Notes under the pieces: generated by a model | Told to the model about the DNA's origin: nothing | What the model saw: only the letters and a program-made list of their open reading frames with translations | Databases searched by the model: none | Shown: piece after piece, positions 5,762 through 16,816 of the stretch | Position numbering within the stretch: the stretch's first letter is position 1 | Layout of the letters: every line of letters begins with the position of its first letter | Source: Deltaproteobacteria bacterium | GTDB taxonomy: Bacteria; Desulfobacterota; Binatia; HRBIN30; JACQVA1 | Direction: 5' to 3' | DNA: 64,000 bases | Assembly (NCBI GenBank): GCA_016178705.1 | Contig: JACOST010000028.1 | Location: 516,951-580,950 of the forward strand | Made by a program: the position numbers and the translations under genes

Positions 5762-5786
5762 GCGTCTTCCCATATTGGCTGCCGGC

Positions 5787-8700
5787 ATGTCGCGGGTTCG
5801 GGCACAGACGGTTGCGGCGCTGCTGTTCGGCTCCGGGTTTTGCGCACTGATCTACGAAGTCGCGTGGTTGCGCCTGCTGCGGTTGGTGTTCGGCGCATCG
5901 ACTGCGGCGAACGCTGCGGTGCTGGCGATCTTCCTCGGCGGGCTGGGATTCGGTGGATGGTGGCTCGGGCGGCGGGCGGACGCCGCACGCAATCCGCTCG
6001 CGTTCTATGCGCGCCTGGAGTTTGGGGTGGCGGTGGCGGCGGCGGCGAGTCCGCTGCTGGTCATGCTGGTGCGCTCGCTCTATCTCGCCCTCGGCGGAAC
6101 CGCCGCGCTCGGCACAACCGGCGGCACCTTGCTGCGACTAGGGTTGTCGACGCTGGTGCTGGGTTTTCCCACCGTACTCATGGGCGGAACACTGCCGGCC
6201 GCTGTGCGTGCGGTTGAGCGCCGCGCCGACGCCGGCCGGCGCCAGATGGGTCTGATCTACGGCGCCAACACGCTCGGCGCCGTGGCGGGCAGCTTGTGCG
6301 CGAGTTTTTTATGCCTTGAGACGGTCGGCACCAATCGCACCGTCTGGCTGGCGAGCGTGATCAATCTGATGGTGGCGTTGCTGGCGTCCGGCATCGCGCG
6401 CCGCGTCGTGGTGGTGACGGATGAGGATTCCGTCGAGTCGCGCTTGCCCGCCGTCTCATCCGCACCGGTGGCGTTGATCTGGATGGCGGCCGCGGTGGTT
6501 GGCTTCGCGTTCCTGCTGATGGAGCTGGTGTGGTACCGCATGCTGGCACCGCTGCTCGGCGGGTCGTCGTATACATTCGGATTGATTCTGGCGGTGGCGC
6601 TGCTCGGCATCGGTGTCGGCAGCGTCCTGTACGCGGTCGGCGCACAACAACGCCGGCCGACGTTGATGACATTCGCCGCGAGCTGCGCGCTCGAAGCCTT
6701 GTGCATCGCCCTGCCTTACGCAGCGGGCGATCGAATCGCCGTGGCGGCGATGGTGATGCGCCCGCTGGGTTTCATCGGCTTCCTGCCTTTGGTCGGCACG
6801 TGGCTGGCGATCTCGCTGGTGGTGGTGTTTCCGGCCGCGGTCGTGTCGGGGTATCAGTTCCCGCTCTTGGTTGGATTGCTCGGAGCGGGTGACCAACGCG
6901 TGGGCCGCGAGGTCGGCCAAGCGTACGCATGGAACACGGTCGGCGCGATCGTCGGCTCATTGGCGGGAGGCTTTGGCTTGCTACCGCTGCTGTCGGCCCC
7001 GGGCGTGTGGCGGCTCGTCGTGTACTTGCTGATCGGGTTGGCCGTGATCAGTGTGGCGCGGGCGCTGCGCGACGCCGCTAGTCGGAGTCGCGCCTTGACG
7101 CCGTTGCTAGTCGCGGCGGTGAGCGTATTGTTGTGCCGCGCGGAGGGGCCCACCGCGTTTTGGCGTCACTCCCCGATCGGCGCCGGGCGGCTGCACATGT
7201 CGATCGATGCACCAAACGACTTGCAGCGTCTCTTCAACGAGCGGCGACGTCCGATCATTTGGGAAGCCGATGGCGTCGAAAGCACCGTCGGGCTCGACCG
7301 GTCGAATGCCTACGCATTCATCGTCCACGGCAAATCCGACGGCAACGCGATCGCTGACGCACCGACGCAGGTGATGTCGGGGCTCATCGGCGCGCTGCTT
7401 CACCTCGAGCCCAAGCGCGTTTTGGTGATTGGCCTCGGCACTGGCAGCACCGCCGGTTGGTTGGCGCAGGTACCGTCGGTCGAACGGGTCGATGTGGTCG
7501 AGCTGGAGCCGGCGATTTTGCACGTCGCCGAAGTCTGCAGTCCGGTGAATCAGAATGTGCTCGCGAATCCGAAGGTGCATATCGTCATCGGCGACGGCCG
7601 CGAGTTCTTGCTAACCACGAGCGAGCGCTATGACATCATCTTTTCCGAGCCGTCCAATCCGTATCGCGCGGGTGTGGCCAGTCTGTTCACGCATGAGTTC
7701 TACGACGCGGTGCGCGCGCGGCTGACCGAGGCCGGGGTGTTCGTGCAATGGGTCCAGGCCTATGAGGTTGGTGCGTCCACGCTCCGCAGTGTGTATGCAA
7801 CGGTCGGCCGCACGTTCCCGGCGGTGGAAACCTGGGAAGTGAATCGCAACCACGATCTCGTCCTGACGGCGCGCCAACGGGTGAGCCCGCACGACGTGGC
7901 GCAACTACGTGCGCTCGTCGCCACTGAGCCGTATCGCAGCGCGCTGCAACTTGTCTGGGGTGTTACGGGCGTGGAAGGATTTTATAGCCGGTACCTCGGC
8001 AACGCAGGATTCGGTGAGGCGCTGGCGCACGCCGACGATGGCCGGATCAATACCGATGATCGGACCCTGATCGAGTTCGAGTTTGCCCGCACCGTGGGCC
8101 GCGAAGGTCTGTTGAACGTGGACGATTTGCGCGCGCTGGCGGTGGCGCATGGAAATCACCGGCCGCCGATCCAAGGCGGCGCGATCGATTGGAACTTGGC
8201 GGATGAGTTGCGCAGCTTGCGCGCGGCGACCGAAGCGTCGGTTCCAGAAACCGTCCCTTCGCCGGATGCCGCGTTGAACGAGCGACTGCGCGCGCGTCAG
8301 GCCTATGCGAGCGGAAATATCAATGAGGCGCGGTTGCACTGGCAGGCGCAGACCGAAGGACCGAAAGGGCCGCGCGACATCACCATGCTGGCGGAGATGT
8401 ATACGGTGGCGGGTGATGCCCGGGCGCTGGAGTACATCGATGCGCTCCAGTCGCTGTTCCCGCCGGAGGCCGAAGCGTTGCTGGCGCAGTGGCATCACCG
8501 CGCCGGCGAGGTGGACAGTGCGGCGGCGCATCTGCTCGCCGCATTCTCCGCTTACCGCGAGTTCCCGTGGGCGCATCCGATCGTCCTGAACCATGCGCTC
8601 GCGCTGGCGTGGACGATCGCGACTCAGCGGCCGCAGTGGGCGGGCGAACTCTTCACTGCGCTCGCGGAGCCCTTTGCGGTGCGGGTCCTCGACGAAGCGC

Positions 8701-8936
8701 GCATGCACGCCTACGCCGATATTGGGCTGATGACCGACTTCGACGGCAAGTGCATCGCGGCATTGGCGCCGTTCGAGCCGCATACGATTTGGGATCGTCG
8801 GTTCCTCGAAGAGCGCGCTCGCTGTTACGACACACACCACCATCCACTGGCTGAGCGCGCGCGGCGTGAGCTCGCCACCTACCTCGCGAACGCACCGGGC
8901 CGGATCGATCAGGGGCTGACCCCGGCGCAGCCGTAG
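5787..8936 (+). CDS. fused membrane (MFS-like) domain / spermidine synthase-like aminopropyltransferase domain / C-terminal TPR-like protein
   Basis: About 1050 aa. N-terminal ~480 aa multi-TM region. Central spermidine-synthase fold (VLVIGLGTGSTAGWL...DIIFSEPSNPYRAGVASLFTHEFY). C-terminal helical repeats. Start ATG 5787 (alternative 5775). Confidence 0.7.
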   Translation: MSRVRAQTVAALLFGSGFCALIYEVAWLRLLRLVFGASTAANAAVLAIFLGGLGFGGWWLGRRADAARNPLAFYARLEFGVAVAAAASPLLVMLVRSLYLALGGTAALGTTGGTLLRLGLSTLVLGFPTVLMGGTLPAAVRAVERRADAGRRQMGLIYGANTLGAVAGSLCASFLCLETVGTNRTVWLASVINLMVALLASGIARRVVVVTDEDSVESRLPAVSSAPVALIWMAAAVVGFAFLLMELVWYRMLAPLLGGSSYTFGLILAVALLGIGVGSVLYAVGAQQRRPTLMTFAASCALEALCIALPYAAGDRIAVAAMVMRPLGFIGFLPLVGTWLAISLVVVFPAAVVSGYQFPLLVGLLGAGDQRVGREVGQAYAWNTVGAIVGSLAGGFGLLPLLSAPGVWRLVVYLLIGLAVISVARALRDAASRSRALTPLLVAAVSVLLCRAEGPTAFWRHSPIGAGRLHMSIDAPNDLQRLFNERRRPIIWEADGVESTVGLDRSNAYAFIVHGKSDGNAIADAPTQVMSGLIGALLHLEPKRVLVIGLGTGSTAGWLAQVPSVERVDVVELEPAILHVAEVCSPVNQNVLANPKVHIVIGDGREFLLTTSERYDIIFSEPSNPYRAGVASLFTHEFYDAVRARLTEAGVFVQWVQAYEVGASTLRSVYATVGRTFPAVETWEVNRNHDLVLTARQRVSPHDVAQLRALVATEPYRSALQLVWGVTGVEGFYSRYLGNAGFGEALAHADDGRINTDDRTLIEFEFARTVGREGLLNVDDLRALAVAHGNHRPPIQGGAIDWNLADELRSLRAATEASVPETVPSPDAALNERLRARQAYASGNINEARLHWQAQTEGPKGPRDITMLAEMYTVAGDARALEYIDALQSLFPPEAEALLAQWHHRAGEVDSAAAHLLAAFSAYREFPWAHPIVLNHALALAWTIATQRPQWAGELFTALAEPFAVRVLDEARMHAYADIGLMTDFDGKCIAALAPFEPHTIWDRRFLEERARCYDTHHHPLAERARRELATYLANAPGRIDQGLTPAQP

Positions 8937-8978: not shown

Positions 8979-9797
8979 TCACGACACGGCGCGAGGTTTG
9001 TAGATCGCGGTGTGTCGAATGTGTTGGACGACGTGGTCGGGATCGGCAACCACCAGGATGTCGAGGACCACGAATTCGTGACCCTTGCGCTCGAAACACT
9101 CGGCGACCCGGGTGCGCAGACTGATGGTCTGGCCGTAGCGCGCGAGAGAATAGTGTGTGACCTCGCTGGCGGTATGGATCCACGGGCCGAGCACGACGTT
9201 GCGGGCAAGAACTCGATTGGCGAGTGCAAGCAACAGGGCAGGGTGAGCGATCCCGTCGGCGCCGCGGTACAGCGGCAAGTCATCACCGACGGCATCGACG
9301 AAGGCGATGGCCTTGCGTGCATCGAGACGCAACCCGAGCGTGCCGAGCACGGTGCCCGCGGCCAGTGCTGACGCGGCCGCGGGCGGACGCATGACCGGCA
9401 GCGGCGCGATTGGGTAGTTCGCCACGTCGGGTTCTGCGCTCGGCGACGACGTGCGGGCGCTGCCCCGCGCGCAAACGACTCCGTCGGGTCGTTGCACCGT
9501 CAGCTCGATGTGGTCGTTGGTGTTGTGCGCAACGACGGTGATCTCTTCGCCGTCGTAACACGGTTGCATGAAGCGGCCGCTCGCGCCTCCGCGCGCCAGC
9601 CACTGGGCGCCCAAGCGCGCGACGACCGGGCGAGTGAGGTACCCGAACACCGCGATGCCCGGCACCAGCCCGCCGGCGAAACCGTACTGGCGCGCAACGG
9701 TGTCGTCGTGGATCTTGTTGTCCGAGTCGGACGCGATATTGCGCGCCAGCACTCGATAGGTGCCGAACGGTTCAGCCGATGGGGAGTGACCGCTCAC
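8979..9797 (-). CDS. MaoC-like (R-specific enoyl-CoA hydratase-type) double hot-dog fold protein
   Basis: MaoC dehydratase motif NKIHDDTVARQYGFAGGLVPG. 272 aa, GTG start. Last gene of the minus-strand CoA operon. Confidence 0.6.
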   Translation of the reverse strand: MSGHSPSAEPFGTYRVLARNIASDSDNKIHDDTVARQYGFAGGLVPGIAVFGYLTRPVVARLGAQWLARGGASGRFMQPCYDGEEITVVAHNTNDHIELTVQRPDGVVCARGSARTSSPSAEPDVANYPIAPLPVMRPPAAASALAAGTVLGTLGLRLDARKAIAFVDAVGDDLPLYRGADGIAHPALLLALANRVLARNVVLGPWIHTASEVTHYSLARYGQTISLRTRVAECFERKGHEFVVLDILVVADPDHVVQHIRHTAIYKPRAVS

Positions 9798-9800
9798 GGG

Positions 9801-9920
9801 TTACTTCTTCTGCTCCATCTCTTGCCCGCAGCATTTGATTGAGCCGGTGCCGGCTTTGGTGACGATGACCTGCGAGCCGCACTTGCCGCAGATGTACATT
9901 TTGCCGAGTTGGTTTGCCAT
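9801..9920 (-). CDS. desulforedoxin-like Fe(Cys)4 / zinc-ribbon small protein (39 aa)
   Basis: Not in ORF track (<60 aa). Minus-strand ATG 9920-9918 to TAA 9803-9801 encodes MANQLGKMYICGKCGSQVIVTKAGTGSIKCCGQEMEQKK. It matches the desulforedoxin signature Y-x-C-x-x-C-G-x-x-V-x-V-...G-x-G-...-C-C-G-x-x-M. Sits 4 nt after the hot-dog gene start and 19 nt after the crotonase stop. Confidence 0.6.
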   Translation of the reverse strand: MANQLGKMYICGKCGSQVIVTKAGTGSIKCCGQEMEQKK

Positions 9921-9938
9921 TGCTCTCTCTCTGCTCGA

Positions 9939-10673
9939 TCACGAGCCTTTGAATGTGGGCCGCCGCTTTTCAAGGAAGGCGCGGATGCCTTCGGTGCGGT
10001 CGGCGGTTGTCTGTAGCAAGACATAGAGGTCTTGCTCAAGCCGGATGCCGTGATCGAGGGGGAGATCGACGCCATCGCGCACAGCTTCCTTGGCGTAGCG
10101 CAGCGCGACCGGTCCTTTCGCGGCCAGGTCGCCCACTACACGGCGGACATCGGTCGCGAACGATTTGGCGGGAAACACGCGCGTTGCCAACCCCATCGCC
10201 TCGGCTTCAGCGGCGGTGAGCGCGCGGCCGCTGAGCAGAAGATCCAGCGCGCGCGTCCGACCGACGATGCGCGGCAGCCGCTGCGTGCCGCCGTGCGACG
10301 GCAACTCGCCGCGTTGGAGTTGCGGCATTTGGAAGCGCGCGCGCGTCGAGACCAGCCGCAAATCACACGCGAGCGCCAGTTCGAACCCTTCCGCAATCGC
10401 ATCGCCGTCAATCGCGGCGATCACCGGGACGGTGAGATGGCCGATCGCCGCGATCCAATCAACGCGGCGTTCCCAGTCGCCGGCGTTCGCCACACCCTGG
10501 CAAAAGTGTTGCCCGCTTCCGGCGATCAGGACGACGCGGATGGTTTCATCCAACTCGATCGATTCGACCGCGGTGCAGAGTGCCTGCGCTGTTGCTTGGT
10601 TGATCGTTGTGTGAGTCAGCGTGAAGGTGGCGATGCCGTTGCGCAGAGTGGTACGGAGTGTCTGGGCTCGCAT
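9939..10673 (-). CDS. enoyl-CoA hydratase/isomerase family protein
   Basis: Crotonase fold (…LIAGSGQHFCQGVAN…). Start set to internal ATG (MRAQTLRTTLRNGIATFTL) because the upstream ORF extension overlaps the ligase gene. 15-nt gap to ligase stop. Confidence 0.75.
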   Translation of the reverse strand: MRAQTLRTTLRNGIATFTLTHTTINQATAQALCTAVESIELDETIRVVLIAGSGQHFCQGVANAGDWERRVDWIAAIGHLTVPVIAAIDGDAIAEGFELALACDLRLVSTRARFQMPQLQRGELPSHGGTQRLPRIVGRTRALDLLLSGRALTAAEAEAMGLATRVFPAKSFATDVRRVVGDLAAKGPVALRYAKEAVRDGVDLPLDHGIRLEQDLYVLLQTTADRTEGIRAFLEKRRPTFKGS

Positions 10674-10687
10674 GGGTTTGGCTGTTC

Positions 10688-12244
10688 TCATGCGGCGCCG
10701 AATTGCTTGCGCAGATCCTTCTTCAGAATCTTTCCCATCGGGTTCTTGGGCAGCTCGGGCAGGAAGTGGATGATCTCCGGTTTCTTGAAGCTGGCCAAAC
10801 GCTGGCGACAGAACTCGATGATGTCGTCGGCGCCGAGCATGACCTCGGGGCGCGTCACCACCACCGCGCAGATCCGTTGTCCCCACTCGACGTCGGGTAC
10901 GCCGATCACGGCTGCCTCTTCGACGCTCGGGTGCGAATAGAGCACTGCTTCAACCTCCGCCGGCGCGATGTTCTCGCCGCCGCGGATGATCATGTCGTCC
11001 TTGCGACCGGCGAGAAAGATGTAGCCGTCGGAGTCGAGCCAGCCCATGTCGCGTGTCGGCAACCAACCGTCGGCGTTGAGCGGCGAACTGGCACCCTCCT
11101 TGGCGGCGTAGCCCTTCATCACGCGTGGTGTACGCACCCAGATCTCGCCCACTTCGCCAGCCGGGAGGTCATGGCTGTCGTCGTCCACCACCTTTACCTC
11201 AACGTCCGGTAGCGGACGACCAATGGAGACGAGGCGCTTCAAGCGCAACTCGACTTCCGCGGCTGAGCCGTCGAGCCGATGATCGTCGGGACCGAGCACG
11301 GTCAACGTCGAAGTGGTTTCGGTCTGCCCGAACGCGTTGACGAAGCCGACCGTCTTCGGGAACATCTCGAGCGCGCGGCGGATCACCGGGAACGGCATGG
11401 CGGCACCACCGTAGGAGAGATTCTGCAGGCTCGACAAATCGCACGTGGCGAAGTCGGGATGGTCGATGAGCTGCTTCAGCATCGTCGGCACGACGAAGGC
11501 GTGGGTGACCTGCTCGCGCGCAACCGTGTGCAGCCACTCGGTGGCGTCGAACTGGCGCAGCAGCACGAGTTTGCGACCGGTAAACAGATTACTCATCACG
11601 TTGGTGGCACCGGCGATGTGGTAGAGCGGTACGCACAACAACGACGTGCCGCGCGGCGTGCCATCGGCCAGCTCGACGTTGGCGGTAACGTAGGCAGTGA
11701 AGTCGTTGAAGCGCAGCATCACGCCTTTCGGCAGCGCGGTGGTGCCACTGGTGTACATCAAGATCGTGGTGTCGTCGTCGTTGGTCTCGCGCTCCTGGAA
11801 TTCAGCGGCGGCCGCGGCGATGAGTGGCTCGATATGCCGAAAGCCTTCGTGCTCGCCCTCCATCGCGATGCAGGTGGTGACGCTCGGCAGCTTGGGAAGC
11901 AGCTGCCGCACGGTCTCGACGTAGCGATCACCGACGAGCAGCACCTTGGTCTCGGCGGCGCCGAGCATGTACTCCAGCTCCGGCAGCTTGGCGCGGTAGT
12001 TCACCGGAATGAATACCGCATTGAGCGCGGCGGCGGCGAAGTAGGCTTCCACATATTGCGCCGAGTTGGTCTGCAGCACGGCGATGCGATCGCCGCGGCG
12101 GACGCCGATGCCTTCGAGCGCGTTGGCCAGCCGCTGAATGCGCTCCCACAGTTCGCCGTAGGTGCGGCGTTGCGTGTCGTAGACGAGGATCTCCTGGTCA
12201 GGAAACATCATCGCCGGAATGCTGACGAAGTTGGACGTGTTCAC
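10688..12244 (-). CDS. long-chain fatty-acid--CoA ligase (AMP-dependent synthetase/ligase)
   Basis: AMP-binding motif MYTSGTTALPKGV, and GYAAKEG...DMIIRGGENI...KKPE...GKILKKDL C-terminal motifs. 518 aa. Confidence 0.85.
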   Translation of the reverse strand: MNTSNFVSIPAMMFPDQEILVYDTQRRTYGELWERIQRLANALEGIGVRRGDRIAVLQTNSAQYVEAYFAAAALNAVFIPVNYRAKLPELEYMLGAAETKVLLVGDRYVETVRQLLPKLPSVTTCIAMEGEHEGFRHIEPLIAAAAAEFQERETNDDDTTILMYTSGTTALPKGVMLRFNDFTAYVTANVELADGTPRGTSLLCVPLYHIAGATNVMSNLFTGRKLVLLRQFDATEWLHTVAREQVTHAFVVPTMLKQLIDHPDFATCDLSSLQNLSYGGAAMPFPVIRRALEMFPKTVGFVNAFGQTETTSTLTVLGPDDHRLDGSAAEVELRLKRLVSIGRPLPDVEVKVVDDDSHDLPAGEVGEIWVRTPRVMKGYAAKEGASSPLNADGWLPTRDMGWLDSDGYIFLAGRKDDMIIRGGENIAPAEVEAVLYSHPSVEEAAVIGVPDVEWGQRICAVVVTRPEVMLGADDIIEFCRQRLASFKKPEIIHFLPELPKNPMGKILKKDLRKQFGAA

Positions 12245-12297
12245 GATGCCTCCCTCAAAAGTGACAGTATGCAGTCGGCAGTGGGCAGTGTTGAGAC

Positions 12298-13023
12298 TCA
12301 GAGTGGCGCGTCGGACCAGCGACTGTCAACCGCGGCGAGCCGCGCCTCCAGCGCCAAGCCATCGCGCAGCGATTGGTCGAGTCCTTCGTGCACGGCGCGC
12401 TTGGTGCGAGCCGCGAGTGACGGTTCGATCGCACTCAGACGATGTGCGAGTGCCGATGCTTCCGACTGCAACTCAGCCGTTGGAACCACCCGGGTGACCA
12501 GACCGAAGTGTTGCGCCTCGGTTGCGTTGAGCATGCGACCGGTCAGCACTAGATCGAGCGCGCGACCGAGTCCGAACAAGCGCGACGTGGTTTGCGTGCC
12601 GGCAACACCGGGAATCATTCCGAGTCGTGTTTCCGGCAAACCGAAGCGCGCGTTGTCGGCAGCGACGCAGAGGTCGCACAGCATCGCCATCTCGAAGCCA
12701 CCGCCGACGGCGTAGCCGTGCACGGCCGCGATCGTGATCTGCGGCAGACTCTTCAGTGTACCCCACACGTCGCGCTGAAAGCGCACCGCGCGTGCGACAG
12801 TGGGCGACGGGGCGGTGCCGAACTCGCGTACGTCACCACCCGTGCTGAACGCCGGCCCATTGCCGCGCAGGATCATCACCCGGATATCCGGATCGTCGCG
12901 CACCGCCGTCAGCGCGGCAAACAACGCGTCGCGCATCGCGACGTTGTACGCATTGAGGACGGCGGGTCGGTTGAGCGAGACGATCGCCACCGGCCCGTCG
13001 GTCTCGTAGAGAACCGCGGGCAT
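12298..13023 (-). CDS. enoyl-CoA hydratase/isomerase family protein
   Basis: Crotonase signatures (VAIVSLNRPAVLNA...GGDVREF...AVHGYAVGGGFEMAMLCD). Start ATG at 13023 (MPAVLYETDG). Confidence 0.8.
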   Translation of the reverse strand: MPAVLYETDGPVAIVSLNRPAVLNAYNVAMRDALFAALTAVRDDPDIRVMILRGNGPAFSTGGDVREFGTAPSPTVARAVRFQRDVWGTLKSLPQITIAAVHGYAVGGGFEMAMLCDLCVAADNARFGLPETRLGMIPGVAGTQTTSRLFGLGRALDLVLTGRMLNATEAQHFGLVTRVVPTAELQSEASALAHRLSAIEPSLAARTKRAVHEGLDQSLRDGLALEARLAAVDSRWSDAPL

Positions 13024-13062
13024 GACGCTTCCGTTCCCCCTCACGGCGGATCAGGAGGCAGA

Positions 13063-13206
13063 CTAGTCGCTCGACGGCAGCGGCTTGGCTTCCTTGATTT
13101 TCATCTCCTGTCCGCAGCACTCGACCGCGCCGGTGCCCGGCTTGTTGCACAAGGCCTCGGTGCCACAGGTCGCGCACAGGTATCGTTTGCCAAGTTGGTT
13201 TGCCAT
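13063..13206 (-). CDS. desulforedoxin-like Fe(Cys)4 / zinc-ribbon small protein (47 aa), paralog of 9801-9920
   Basis: Not in ORF track. Encodes MANQLGKRYLCATCGTEALCNKPGTGAVECCGQEMKIKEAKPLPSSD. Same MANQLGK...Y-x-C-x-x-CG...G-x-G-...-CCGQEM architecture. Sits between the YgfZ-like gene and a crotonase. Confidence 0.6.
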   Translation of the reverse strand: MANQLGKRYLCATCGTEALCNKPGTGAVECCGQEMKIKEAKPLPSSD

Positions 13207-13232
13207 GAGTCACCTCTCTTCAACTGTACTGG

Positions 13233-14303
13233 TCATGATCGATAGAACGGTCGCGCTGTAATGGTCAAATCGATTGGTTGATCGTTGACGCCGGCCTGCA
13301 ACACGGTGCCGATATCGCCCGCGCTGCGATGCACGTAGCCGAGGGCGATGATGGAGGAAAGCGCGGGTGACGCCGCCGCACTGGTGACATGGCCGACGTC
13401 CTTGCCGTCGCGGGTCAGCGTCGTCCCTGCCGGCGGAACGATCGATGCCTCCCCGACAAGTCCGGAGAGTTTGCGATTCACATGGCCGCGCGCGGCGACG
13501 CGCTCGACGACTTCTTGGCCAAGATAGCAACCCTTGCTGAAACTGATCGCGTCGTCGAGGCCGACTTCCATCACCAGGGTCTCTTCGTCCATATCGAGTC
13601 CGTACCAAGGAATGCCGGCTTCGAGTCGCAGTACGTTGAGGGCGTCGAGCCCCACCGGTGTCGCACCCGCCGCAGTCAATCGTTGCCACACGGTCGCCGC
13701 GTTGGCGCGAGCGCTCAGCAGACGGAATCCCGTCTCGCCGGTCTGACCGATCGCCACCACACGAACGGTAACGCTGTCGATCGTGATCTCGCGATGCTGA
13801 TACGGTTGCAGATCGGCGAGCGTTGCGCCGGTGACATCGGACAGTAACGGAGCGGCGCGCGGCCCTTCGATCGACAGCAACGCGTCCATGTCGTCGCCGA
13901 TCGCCAGCTCCACGTCGTCAGCGATGATGAAGCGTTCGAGCGCTTTCCGCACCGCGTCGACGCGTATCGCCGGAACGTCGAGCAGGACACGGTCGGCGAG
14001 TACGAAGACGTACAAATCCGCGACCACTCGGCCTTGGATGGTGAGCAGCGCCGCGTGCGTGCCGCTCCCGGGCGCAAGCTGTTTCACGTCATTGGTGAGC
14101 TGGCCTTGTAGGAACGTGATGCGGTCTTCGCCGGTGACGGCGATGAGACCACGATGCCGCGCATCGAGAATACCGACGGCGCGGCGGACAGCCTGCCATT
14201 CGCGCTGTGGCGATCCGAACGCGCGCGGCACGCGCACGCCGAACGTGTCGTCACACGTAGCACCGGCTGCCGCCTGCGCTCGGTCGAGATCTGCCCAGCT
14301 CAT
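13233..14303 (-). CDS. YgfZ/GcvT-family folate-binding protein (aminomethyltransferase-like)
   Basis: 356 aa with GcvT-like folate-binding domain features (GLIAVTGEDRITFLQGQLTNDV...LNVLRLEAGIPWYG...KGCYLGQE). First gene of the minus-strand operon. Confidence 0.7.
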   Translation of the reverse strand: MSWADLDRAQAAAGATCDDTFGVRVPRAFGSPQREWQAVRRAVGILDARHRGLIAVTGEDRITFLQGQLTNDVKQLAPGSGTHAALLTIQGRVVADLYVFVLADRVLLDVPAIRVDAVRKALERFIIADDVELAIGDDMDALLSIEGPRAAPLLSDVTGATLADLQPYQHREITIDSVTVRVVAIGQTGETGFRLLSARANAATVWQRLTAAGATPVGLDALNVLRLEAGIPWYGLDMDEETLVMEVGLDDAISFSKGCYLGQEVVERVAARGHVNRKLSGLVGEASIVPPAGTTLTRDGKDVGHVTSAAASPALSSIIALGYVHRSAGDIGTVLQAGVNDQPIDLTITARPFYRS

Positions 14304-14449: not shown

Positions 14450-15679
14450 ATGAAGATAGTGTCGGCCCGCGAGGCGATTCGTGCAATCCCCGACGGCGCG
14501 CGTGTCGTGTTCCCTCACGACGCCGTTGAACCGACCGAGATCTATCAAGCCTTCGCTGCGGAGTACCAGCGCTTCACCGCGCTGCGGCTCTACTCCGGCC
14601 TGCAGTTCGGCAGCTATCCGTTTCTTCAGGCCGGTCTCGGGACGCACTTCAGCTACACGACCTGGCAAGCGTCGCCGAAGCTGCGACCGTTGGTGCGAGA
14701 CGGCCGCATCGAGATTCTCCCGCTGCGCTACCGCGACGTGCCGCGCATGGTTGCGCGCACCGGGACAATTGTTCCCGATGTCGTGGTGGCGCAGGTCAGC
14801 AAACCACGTCATCACGAAGTGAGCCTCGGGATCGCGTTGAGCTTCTACCGCGAGCTGATCGACAACGCATCGCTAGTGATCGCTGAAATCAACGAGCACA
14901 TGCCGTGGACGCGCGGGCCGACGCGCGTGCCGATCAGTGCGATTGATCTGGCTGTGGAGTCGTCGCATCCGCTCGGCGAGTATCGATTTGCGCAGAAGAG
15001 TGCGCGTGATGAGCAGATCGTCGAGAACGTGCTCGGGGTGATTCCCGCCGGCGCGTGGGTGCAGTTCGGCGTCGGGGCCATTCCCGACGCGGTCCTGAGC
15101 CGGCTGCACGAGATTCGCGGTGCCAACGTGTTCTCGGGTATCGTCACGGACGGACTGCTCGACTGCATCCGGCGCAGCCGGCATCGCGTGCGCGTCATCA
15201 CCGGCGAAGCCGGCGGCACCCGGCCGCTATACGATTTCGTTGGCGAGTCGGCGCAAGTCGAGTTTCAACCGGTGAGCGTCACTCATAGCGTTGCCGAGCT
15301 GGCGAAACGCGCGCCTTTCGTGTCGGTGAACTCGGCGATCGAGGTCGATCTCTCCGGCCAGATCAACGGCGAGACGATCGATGGCGTGCAGGTCAGCGGC
15401 GTCGGTGGCAGCCTGGACTTCCTCGAAGGGGCCGAGCACTCGCGCGGCGGCGCGTCGATCATCGCGCTGTCGTCGACAACCGAGGACGGCACTCGCTCGA
15501 AGATCGTTGCGCACCTCGGCGAGCAGACGCCGGTGACGATCCCGCGCTTTTGCGCCGACTACATCGTCACCGAGTACGGCGCCGCGCGCTTGCGCGGCAA
15601 GACGCTGCGCGAACGCGCCGCGGCGCTGATGACGATCGCGCATCCGGATTGGCGCGACCGCTTGACGGCGGAAGTGTGA
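14450..15679 (+). CDS. acetyl-CoA hydrolase/transferase family protein (4-hydroxybutyrate CoA-transferase-like)
   Basis: 409 aa. Family-wide similarity, including the conserved GGSLDF region near the C-terminus. Confidence 0.75.
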   Translation: MKIVSAREAIRAIPDGARVVFPHDAVEPTEIYQAFAAEYQRFTALRLYSGLQFGSYPFLQAGLGTHFSYTTWQASPKLRPLVRDGRIEILPLRYRDVPRMVARTGTIVPDVVVAQVSKPRHHEVSLGIALSFYRELIDNASLVIAEINEHMPWTRGPTRVPISAIDLAVESSHPLGEYRFAQKSARDEQIVENVLGVIPAGAWVQFGVGAIPDAVLSRLHEIRGANVFSGIVTDGLLDCIRRSRHRVRVITGEAGGTRPLYDFVGESAQVEFQPVSVTHSVAELAKRAPFVSVNSAIEVDLSGQINGETIDGVQVSGVGGSLDFLEGAEHSRGGASIIALSSTTEDGTRSKIVAHLGEQTPVTIPRFCADYIVTEYGAARLRGKTLRERAAALMTIAHPDWRDRLTAEV

Positions 15680-15688
15680 AGCCTCCCA

Positions 15689-16816
15689 TCACGGGAGGTC
15701 GTTGCGGTCGACTACCTCGATATCGACCGCCATGGTGTTGTTGGCAGTATCGGCGCCGTCATCGACGGCGTTGAAGGCGGCGGTGTCGACGGCATCCGCT
15801 TCCACATCGACGCTGCAGCGAAATGGCGTCGTGGCGGTGACCGACAAGACGGCTTCGACGGGAAACTTGACCGTGAAGCTGCCGTAGACCCTTCCGCCCC
15901 TGGGGACCGTCGCGGTGGCTTGCAGCCCGGGGACGAGTGAGCCGGCATTGGAATCGACCTGCGTCACCGTGCCGGCGGGACACGAGCCGTCGGTAACGGC
16001 CAACGAGTAGTCGCGAGTTGCCGGGGCGCTTGCACCGAATTCAATGTTCGACACCGCCACGCGCACGGTGCGCGATACGGACGGTTTGCCCTTGGTCATG
16101 AAGAGGCGGACTGGATAGAGTACGCCGACAGAGAAATCGGGTCCCTGCGCGCGGGTCTCCGCGATGCCGTTGGGTCCGGAGTTGACGACGATGGTGTTCT
16201 TGTTGCCGCAGGCAGCGTTCACGGCGAGGACTTGGACGTCGTCGCCCGCGGCGACGTTGTTGGCAGTGGTTTCGACAACCTTGTTCGGCCCGCACCGAAT
16301 CACAGCGGTCGTCGCCTTGGCGGTGCCGGCGGCTTGGATTTGCACATCATCGCCGGCGGCGGTGGTGCTGGCGATGCCGTTGCCGCCGACCGTGACGCAC
16401 GTCGCGTTGGCTTGCCCGGCGCCCGGGGCGAGTACGGTCGAGTCATCGACGGCCGCGGTTGTGTTGGCGACGCCATCGGCGCCGGTGTCGATCACCGGCG
16501 TATTCGCGTTCGCGCAGCCGGCCGAGACTGCCACGAGTTGCACATCGTCGCCCGCGGCGGTGGTATCTGCGGTCATGTTAGTGCCACATCTGATCTCGGC
16601 CTGATTGGCCAATCCCTTGCCGGCCGTGATGACTTGCACGTCATCGGTTCCCAGCGGCACCGTGGTTTCGCACACGCCATTGGCGCCACTGTCGATGACC
16701 ACCGCGCTCTGCAGGCCTTTGCCGGGTGGGATCACCTGGATATCAGCGACGACGCGTGAACCGGACGCCAGTGCCAAGAGTGTGGCGATGATCGAGGGTC
16801 GAACGACCGATTTCAT
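15689..16816 (-). CDS. secreted tandem-repeat protein (GDDVQ-type ~36-aa repeats)
   Basis: Signal peptide MKSVVRPSIIATLLALASG. At least 5 imperfect repeats of the form G-x-(N/D)G-(V/I)-x-(E/N)TT-x-A-x-GDDVQ-x-x-A-x-G. Underlying ~108-bp DNA periodicity in 16160-16700. Confidence 0.6.
   Translation of the reverse strand: MKSVVRPSIIATLLALASGSRVVADIQVIPPGKGLQSAVVIDSGANGVCETTVPLGTDDVQVITAGKGLANQAEIRCGTNMTADTTAAGDDVQLVAVSAGCANANTPVIDTGADGVANTTAAVDDSTVLAPGAGQANATCVTVGGNGIASTTAAGDDVQIQAAGTAKATTAVIRCGPNKVVETTANNVAAGDDVQVLAVNAACGNKNTIVVNSGPNGIAETRAQGPDFSVGVLYPVRLFMTKGKPSVSRTVRVAVSNIEFGASAPATRDYSLAVTDGSCPAGTVTQVDSNAGSLVPGLQATATVPRGGRVYGSFTVKFPVEAVLSVTATTPFRCSVDVEADAVDTAAFNAVDDGADTANNTMAVDIEVVDRNDLP

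Follow-up and report, generated by a model that had tools for sequence, protein, structure and literature searches.

The window analysed here is a stretch of 64,000 nucleotides from a bacterium deposited as Deltaproteobacteria bacterium and placed by GTDB among the Binatia (GenBank assembly GCA_016178705.1, contig JACOST010000028.1, positions 516,951 to 580,950 of the forward strand). At positions 8979–14303 it carries a minus-strand run of seven co-directional open reading frames (ORFs), two of which encode cysteine-rich peptides of 39 and 47 amino acids (aa). We refer to these peptides as Dx39 and Dx47, after desulforedoxin (Dx) of D. gigas, and to their respective homologs as the 39-type and the 47-type. 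The two types very probably constitute an obligate two-part (heteromeric) module, which recurs among genes of coenzyme A (CoA) metabolism in several phyla. With a probability of roughly 0.45, and hence tentatively, we read this module as an adaptor or accessory subunit without catalytic activity, and not as an electron carrier.

Both micro-ORFs are almost certainly genuine genes with the Dx fold. Their products begin with the same heptapeptide, MANQLGK, have cysteines at positions 11, 14, 30 and 31 in common, and are 56% identical to each other. Purine-rich, Shine–Dalgarno-like stretches lie 5–10 nt 5' of both, and none of the ORFs flanking them can be extended across either, which excludes a crotonase or hot-dog protein start reaching over these positions. 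Against the Pfam model PF06397 (Desulfoferrodoxin N-terminal domain, threshold 23 bits), Dx39 scores above the threshold and Dx47 just below it (Table 1), and both are under the cut-off of NCBIfam TIGR00319 (36.05; Dx39 27.3 bits, Dx47 13.3 bits). A profile built from 36 family members and searched against the PDB matches desulfoferrodoxin (E = 2.3e-6) and D. gigas desulforedoxin (E = 2.7e-5). In models made with AlphaFold2 (AF2), the predicted local distance difference test score (pLDDT) is 77.6 for Dx47 (53 in its tail block) and 79.8 for Dx39; the best Foldseek match of both models is 1dxg_A (probability 1.00), with a root-mean-square deviation of 0.7 Å for Dx47 and 0.8 Å for Dx39 and target-normalised template-modelling scores of 0.92 and 0.83, respectively.

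The two genes are under strong purifying selection. Across loci of the two types, synonymous differences (pS ~0.7) are near saturation, nonsynonymous differences (pN) stand at 0.15–0.19, and the median dN/dS is 0.17 for Dx47 (146 distinct nucleotide versions) and 0.13 for Dx39 (75 versions). The exact Dx39 protein is present on 11 public contigs. A first-pass annotation of the window, made from the sequence without database searches, had described the two ORFs as unannotated, paralogous and Dx-like. Their paralogy and their Dx homology are borne out, although the paralogs are anciently diverged types; as to annotation, JGI and NCBI records already contain gene calls for the two, under the names ‘hypothetical protein’, ‘desulfoferrodoxin-like iron-binding protein’ or ‘desulfoferrodoxin’. 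The Pfam and PDB-profile matches, the AF2 models with their Foldseek matches, the dN/dS values and these public gene calls thus mark Dx39 and Dx47 as real, Dx-fold and not unannotated. Neither peptide matches the superoxide reductase (SOR) domain PF01880, the chains ending at residues 39 and 47, and TIGR00320 (cut-off 146.9) gives 20.8 and 25.7 bits on the two; because the SOR domain is missing, the public name ‘desulfoferrodoxin’ is an over-annotation. Public annotation also sometimes misses micro-ORFs of this family: at two loci (L182, 3095–3211; L183, 2146–2262) a 39-type ORF lies uncalled directly 5' of a called 47-type gene.

A scan of species-representative genomes yielded at least 588 related loci, of which the best 80 are almost all from metagenome-assembled genomes of Candidatus Binatia or Binataceae, and the gene neighbourhoods were surveyed by tblastn. 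In the loci that we call Binatia-type, the conserved order is YgfZ-like gene, Dx47, an optional insert of 1.6–5.6 kb, crotonase 1 (ECH1), acyl-CoA ligase, crotonase 2 (ECH2) and Dx39. This split arrangement of the pair was counted in 61 loci, with Dx47 always directly downstream of the YgfZ gene and Dx39 always after ECH2. The insert between Dx47 and ECH1 is present in most Binatia-type loci, and Dx47 stays beside YgfZ when it is; in the two loci checked, it is a gene for a 520-aa Amidohydro_3 protein, a family matched in the majority of Binatia-type loci. The operon of the window is the minority form without this gene, and the window contains no Amidohydro_3 homolog anywhere. Within Binataceae, the microproteins are the most conserved members of the operon (77–87% identity), followed by ECH1 and the ligase (~60%), ECH2 (~45%) and YgfZ (~35%). 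The small ORFs and their cysteine pattern are indeed kept in syntenic regions of related genomes. One locus (L081) has YgfZ and Dx47 with no crotonase, ligase or Dx39 within 10 kb. Four loci on contigs labelled Klebsiella pneumoniae, Enterobacteriaceae or Margulisiibacteriota (L041, L032, L069 and L015) also bear the Binatia-type operon; these labels are likely taxonomic mislabels of bins.

Outside this group, the two genes stand side by side. Metagenome contigs were scanned with more divergent 47-type sequences and subjected to the same tblastn survey. In 68 loci, the 39-type gene is directly upstream of the 47-type gene, in fixed order and with gaps of 14–133 nt (mode 31–33 nt). The partner is missing in only two loci with adequate flank, in one of which the cluster runs off the contig, and the two types co-occur in ~98% of testable loci. 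At a single locus (L156, 4767–5154), the two genes converge, the 39-type gene being on the other strand. Dozens of the best matches, moreover, are fusions of 79–122 aa with two matched stretches, composed of a 39-type domain, a linker of 10–35 residues and, at the C-terminus, a 47-type domain whose last residues are ...LPS[SA]D (e.g. P0121, P0125 and P0269). Matches of 57–83 aa from the first homology search were also considered as fusions and proved to be N-terminally over-called ORFs. The fixed order and close spacing of the genes, the rarity of loci with one type alone and the fusions lead us to conclude that the two peptides very probably act together in a complex with one copy of each. 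If this complex resembles the Dx homodimer, it would be a heterodimer with pseudo-twofold symmetry.

The family is large and old. An exhaustive profile search of 1.84 billion representatives returned 1404 proteins at E <= 1e-3 (50% identity representatives), 299 of them at E <= 1e-10, and the family comprises at least 3150 clusters at 90% identity; the named hosts are Binatia, Chloroflexota (including SAR202), Syntrophales and Acidimicrobiia. Identity across architectures is 62–65% within a type, as against 51–57% between types, and because same-type identity is the higher, the 39-type and the 47-type are ancient orthologous groups rather than products of a local duplication.

Several proteins depart from the basic designs. 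Eight of 104–118 aa (P0194, at L181 278–616, P0202, P0205, P0209, P0224, P0235, P0250 and P0253) begin with a ~60-aa domain of unknown kind where the 39-type half would stand and end with a 47-type domain that has the PSSD tail; the gene for P0194 adjoins those for a Zip metal permease and a P-type cation ATPase. P0248 (195 aa) has four Dx-like CxxC...CC repeats in one chain. P0073, from a 576-bp ENA contig, is an 80-aa desulfoferrodoxin-like fragment (PF01880) whose N-terminus is 86% identical to the 47-type and continues into an SOR domain rather than into PLPSSD; it represents either an assembly chimera or a real desulfoferrodoxin (Dfx) whose centre I is of the 47-type.

The neighbours of the pair differ from lineage to lineage, with a common theme of CoA-ester enzymes. 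In one context class, genes for 3-oxoacid-CoA-transferase subunits A and B are followed by Dx39, Dx47, two family-III CoA-transferases and Amidohydro_3, with two crotonases, an Amidohydro_2 protein and a C45 acyltransferase/hydrolase encoded upstream. In another, ECH2, ECH1 and ligase genes precede Dx39 and Dx47, after which comes Amidohydro_3 or CoA_transf_3, in varying orders. The pair is thus found among CoA enzymes in several phyla and in three or more gene orders, in agreement with the association with crotonases that had been noticed in the window, and ECH1 orthologs (47–72% identity) are found inside Dx-pair clusters of other lineages. Compared with NCBIfam, the CoA transferases, crotonases and amidohydrolases of these other lineages obtained generic or sub-threshold names only. 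No oxidoreductase belongs to the conserved core of any surveyed cluster architecture, and no surveyed cluster contains a thiolase. On Chloroflexota-type contigs, a further class has the order carA-carB-pyrK-UPF0047-Dx39-Dx47 beside folE, or the pair beside rpsT-relA-hisS. The PyrK-like gene next to the Chloroflexota pair was considered as a reductase and rejected, since it belongs to the carA-carB-pyrK pyrimidine operon.

Residue conservation bears on what the module might do. In the 39-type, the four cysteine ligands (C-x2-C ... C-C) are conserved at 100%. In the 47-type, C11, C14, C20 and C30 are conserved at ~100% and position 31 is cysteine in 88% of cases and otherwise aspartate or histidine; of 236 domains, 64% have the ligands CCCC, 19% CCCH and 10% CCCD, and ~6% are degenerate. 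Two stretches without metal ligands are at least as well conserved as the cysteines, namely L5-G6-K7-R8 (100%) and the C-terminus (P44, S45 and D47 100%, S46 96%); although near-invariant, the tail has in the model the low pLDDT (53) of a flexible segment. In certain fusions (P0215, P0231, P0256, P0203 and others), the metal ligands are gone from one or both domains, and these proteins still hold the LGKRY motif, the central TK-G-G segment and the PLPSSD tail. P0215 (locus L176) lies in the order YgfZ, fusion, ECH1, and its ECH1 is 72% identical to that of the window; P0231 is followed by a CoA_transf_3 gene, a neighbour that the pair has in other clusters too, with an ECH1-like gene as well. 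Because ligand-less fusions keep both the operon slot and the tail, the metal centre appears to be dispensable within the same operon type and the tail does not. To judge from these sequences, the cysteine-free fusions in the same operon position favour a structural or adaptor role over electron transfer.

We therefore propose the following working model. Dx39 and Dx47, the two halves of one ancient and widespread module, would pair one to one in a heterodimer built on the pattern of the homodimer of D. gigas Dx. In the form encoded in the window, each half would bind one metal ion, Fe or Zn, through its four cysteines; this metal would be mainly structural and could be lost once the halves have been joined covalently. 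The functional surface would consist of the LGK(R)Y strand and the disordered, acidic C-terminal tail of Dx47 (...K-P-L-P-S-S-D-COOH), and the tail may dock the module on one or more enzymes of an acyl-CoA pathway, the candidates being ECH1 and ECH2, the CoA ligase or CoA transferase and, in many clusters, Amidohydro_3.

Four observations weigh against this adaptor model. First, in stand-alone forms, that of the window included, the four ligand cysteines are essentially invariant, which would fit an Fe(Cys)4 redox centre equally well. Second, the cysteine-free forms are a minority (~6%), and their function could have changed. Third, the universal adjacency of YgfZ and Dx47 in Binatia points to iron–sulfur (Fe-S) metabolism. 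Fourth, in Chloroflexota, the pair or its fusion is found alone among housekeeping genes, with CoA enzymes not nearby, so that the partner may lie outside the CoA pathway. This last, stand-alone context is poorly explained by any CoA-specific model and is the chief caveat.

A first alternative is that the module is an electron carrier: its halves would bind iron in distorted Fe(Cys)4 centres resembling that of D. gigas Dx and exchange single electrons with an enzyme of the acyl-CoA pathway, or with a general redox or oxidative-stress enzyme whose gene lies at another site. The peptides belong to the Dx/Dfx centre-I family by sequence and fold, their C11, C14, C30 and C31 are invariant or nearly so when they stand alone, P0073 resembles a Dfx with a 47-type N-terminus, and stand-alone pairs in anaerobe-like Chloroflexota would suit a general redox role. 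We nevertheless consider electron transfer unlikely. None of the cluster architectures conserves an oxidoreductase, an oxygenase, an acyl-CoA dehydrogenase or a reductase; the fourth ligand is histidine or aspartate in 29% of 47-type domains, a substitution commoner in structural Zn sites; the cysteine-free fused relatives occupy the same operon slot and have the same tail; and the redox chemistry known for Dx leaves no part for LGKRY and the C-terminal PSSD, the foremost invariant features apart from the cysteines. The redox role and the iron–sulfur theme that the first-pass annotation had raised for this operon are accordingly not supported, as no oxidoreductase is conserved alongside the pair and a cysteine-free fusion takes the place between YgfZ and crotonase 1.

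A second alternative takes the YgfZ adjacency as its starting point: Dx47, with Dx39, would give iron, a cluster ligand or electrons to YgfZ in the assembly or repair of Fe-S clusters, and the acyl-CoA genes would be neighbours by synteny only. Every Binatia-type locus does have a gene with the full COG0354 signature in front of Dx47, even L081, where neither a crotonase, a ligase nor Dx39 follows within 10 kb; one 47-type fusion is encoded beside the Zip permease and the P-type cation ATPase mentioned above; and YgfZ-family proteins act in Fe-S cluster metabolism (PMC3245475). Outside Binatia-type loci, however, the pair is not adjacent to ygfZ, other phyla embed it tightly between CoA-transferase or ligase genes, and the fusion beside YgfZ in L176 is without any metal ligand, all of which makes this proposal improbable.

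Somewhat more doubtful still is a carrier resembling LysW, on which intermediates would be amide-linked to the tail aspartate or to a conserved lysine, the ligase or CoA transferase activating them, the crotonases modifying them and Amidohydro_3 releasing them. Such a carrier would account for a small metal-ribbon body with an invariant, disordered and acidic C-terminal tail, for the retention of this tail after metal-ligand loss, and for the abundance of amide enzymes in the clusters (Amidohydro_3, Amidohydro_2, the C45 acyltransferase/hydrolase and GNAT). It is at odds with the lack of a conserved ATP-grasp enzyme or other protein-tail ligase in the clusters, with the crotonases, which normally require the CoA moiety, with the window operon, which has no Amidohydro_3, and with the stand-alone housekeeping contexts, into which it fits poorly. 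In addition, the ligase and CoA transferase A/B interchange between clusters, and therefore the chemistry should be that of converting a free acid to a CoA ester. A bolder version, to which we likewise give little credence, would make the module an adaptor or carrier of a new class for CoA-ester and amide metabolism. The PLPSSD tail would be inserted into enzymes or covalently loaded by them, with loading by the ligase or CoA transferase, modification by the crotonases and release by the amidohydrolase, and the Dx fold would have turned from an iron redox centre into a tail-presenting scaffold.

Finally, the first-pass annotation had suggested, from the two Dx-like and two crotonase genes sharing one operon, that a unit of Dx and crotonase was duplicated around the ligase. 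Such a duplication, local and recent, is highly improbable: the gene orders are opposite (Dx47-ECH1 vs ECH2-Dx39), ECH1 and ECH2 differ in catalytic residues and in most of their sequence, Dx39 and Dx47 are each nearer to orthologs from other phyla than to each other, the Dx genes elsewhere adjoin one another and not crotonases, and in most Binatia-type loci the 1.6–5.6-kb insert parts Dx47 from ECH1 and leaves its link to YgfZ in place.

The genes of the operon and the divergent neighbour are listed in Table 1.

Table 1. Genes of the Dx-pair operon in the window and the adjacent CoA-transferase gene, with coordinates, strand and principal sequence features
Feature	Position	Strand	Sequence features
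YgfZ / COG0354 folate-binding protein, 356 aa	13233..14303	-	PF01571 179 bits, PF08669 59 bits
Dx47 (47-type, 47 aa)	13063..13206	-	PF06397 20.8 bits; Cys 11, 14, 20, 30, 31; flexible C-terminal tail KEAKPLPSSD
Crotonase 1 (ECH1, 241 aa)	12298..13023	-	PF00378 179 bits; both catalytic Glu (GGGFE...LPE)
Acyl-CoA ligase, ANL superfamily, 518 aa	10688..12244	-	PF00501 293.8 bits, PF13193 76.7 bits
Crotonase 2 (ECH2, 250 aa)	9939..10691	-	PF00378 155 bits
Dx39 (39-type, 39 aa)	9801..9920	-	PF06397 30.8 bits; Cys 11, 14, 30, 31; basic C-terminus MEQKK
272-aa protein, uncertain family, weak MaoC-like signal at residues 29-94	8979..9797	-	PF01575 17.4 bits (threshold 27)
Acetyl-CoA hydrolase/transferase-family CoA-transferase, 409 aa, divergent from operon (context only)	14450..15679	+	PF13336 180 bits

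All seven genes of the run, the two Dx-patterned small ORFs included, were recovered where the first-pass annotation had placed them. Its gaps of 4–54 nt hold good as regards their shortness, the measured values being -4 to +53 nt. The stop codon of the ligase gene and the ATG of ECH2 share the sequence ATGA (10688–10691), which suggests translational coupling. For ECH1, the ATG at 13023 is preferred as the start, with an alternative GTG at 13044. A promoter and terminator scan found 0 promoter-like sites, and terminator-like sites did not exceed the shuffle expectation.

The 13233–14303 product, which had been called YgfZ-like, is by the measure of its sequence a true member of COG0354/YgfZ. 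It scores 77.2 bits against the YgfZ domain model TIGR03317 (cut-off 49) and remains below the cut-offs of true GcvT models (217 vs 300; 182 vs 236). Its signature KGCYLGQEVVER, which begins at window position 13535 and is present in 94 of the 94 loci carrying a YgfZ gene, matches the published COG0354 signature KGC-[YF]-x-GQE-x3-[KR] (PMC3245475).

The ligase exceeds the cut-off of the subfamily model NF004837 (494.1 vs 476 bits). ECH1 and ECH2 are 37% identical in alignment, and neither reaches any NCBIfam equivalog cut-off. ECH2 lacks ~13 residues after the first conserved FxxG segment, and ECH1 lacks a C-terminal segment of ECH2. Furthermore, glutamine replaces the second catalytic glutamate in ECH2 (MPQ, where ECH1 reads LPE), and its oxyanion loop reads AEG instead of GGG. 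ECH2 thus has the crotonase fold but, with these replacements, is probably not a standard hydratase. Analogies with dimethylsulfoniopropionate demethylation and with carnitine (Cai), ferulate/vanillate and menaquinone (MenE/MenB) pathways were tried and rejected, since no equivalog cut-off was reached and an acyl-CoA dehydrogenase is absent.

The 272-aa protein at the end of the run had been taken for a MaoC double hot-dog, an assignment that a single sub-threshold match covering part of the chain (Table 1) does not sustain; it has no NCBIfam match and no significant PDB sequence match. Its gene occurs only in L001, L003, L012, L019 and identical contigs and is a lineage-specific addition outside the conserved core. 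The divergent CoA-transferase gene is similarly confined to the closest relatives (L001, L003, L011, L012 and L019). On the far side of the 272-aa gene, a 1053-aa multi-pass membrane protein is encoded convergently with the operon (5775–8936, plus strand), and a public homolog of it has a spermine/spermidine-synthase domain (PF01564). Beyond the CoA-transferase gene, positions 15689–16816 (minus strand) encode a protein of 375 aa that begins with a signal-peptide-like stretch and repeats a unit of the form ...G.NG.A.TTAAGDDVQ... many times; counterparts are found in L001 (2926–4056, 376 aa) and L003 (2048–3175, 375 aa), with no Pfam hit recorded for either.

These peptides are an uncharacterised and widespread variant of a known fold family, and the proposed heterodimer is a testable structural hypothesis. 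Bioinorganic chemistry has used desulforedoxin as a model since the 1970s, and to our knowledge its physiological role has not been established; we know of Dx otherwise only as a one-peptide homodimer or as the N-terminal domain of superoxide reductases. Here, a large family of Dx-fold microproteins takes the form of an obligate two-gene or fused pair that has invariant motifs of its own and tolerates the loss of metal ligands, and this pair has repeatedly been built into clusters where genes for a CoA ligase or transferase stand with crotonase and amidohydrolase genes, in uncultured bacteria that are abundant in soils and the sea. Should the adaptor model hold, the pair would represent a new type of accessory subunit for acyl-CoA catabolism; a functional link to YgfZ, if true, would offer a new handle on a protein whose mechanism is, as far as we know, poorly characterised. 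The recurring mis-annotation as ‘desulfoferrodoxin’ is corrected in any case.

A search of the available literature library for this pair, for heteromeric Dx or for Dx in CoA operons found nothing. Several known systems share some of these features. The closest in structure is D. gigas Dx (PDB 1DXG, 1CFW), a 36-aa peptide that has the CxxC...CC spacing and the fold in common with Dx39 and Dx47, whose models superpose on it at 0.7–0.8 Å. It is a dimer of two peptides (6 PDB entries, 12 chains); however, it is a homodimer of one gene product, whereas two anciently diverged paralogs are co-encoded or fused here. Compared with it, the 47-type adds a fifth conserved cysteine (C20) and an invariant 11-residue tail ending in PLPSSD, both types have an N-terminal LGK(R)Y motif that Dx does not, and the fourth ligand can be histidine or aspartate, or all ligands can be lost. 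The hosts differ as well, being Binatia, Chloroflexota and others rather than sulfate reducers. The centre-I domain of desulfoferrodoxin, or 2Fe-superoxide reductase (1DFX, 1VZG, 2JI1), is the best profile match and belongs to the same PF06397, but the window peptides come without the SOR catalytic domain PF01880, bearer of the Fe(His)4Cys centre II, that accompanies it there.

Three other systems resemble the pair in arrangement or design. The paired rubredoxins AlkF/AlkG and RubA/RubB are two small Cys4 paralogs in one catabolic operon with an acyl-CoA synthetase; they have the rubredoxin fold and act with a redox client, AlkB, and a reductase, neither of which is present here. LysW is an amino-group carrier of ~50 aa with a Zn-ribbon body, the function of which is carried by a conserved, flexible and acidic C-terminal tail. 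The resemblance is one of design only, for the tail here is KPLPSSD and not of the EDWGE type, and the clusters contain no LysX-type ATP-grasp or Lys/Arg-pathway gene, the sole ATP-grasp being carB in the housekeeping context. The DUF35 Zn-ribbon/OB-fold scaffolds of thiolase complexes (e.g. archaeal thiolase/HMG-CoA synthase and BbsA of BbsAB), finally, are small, non-catalytic Cys4 subunits encoded in CoA-ester operons. The Dx pair differs from them in fold family, in having no DUF35 Pfam match and no thiolase, and in being much smaller and two-part; nevertheless, these scaffolds provide, as an analogy only, the closest functional parallel to the adaptor that we propose.

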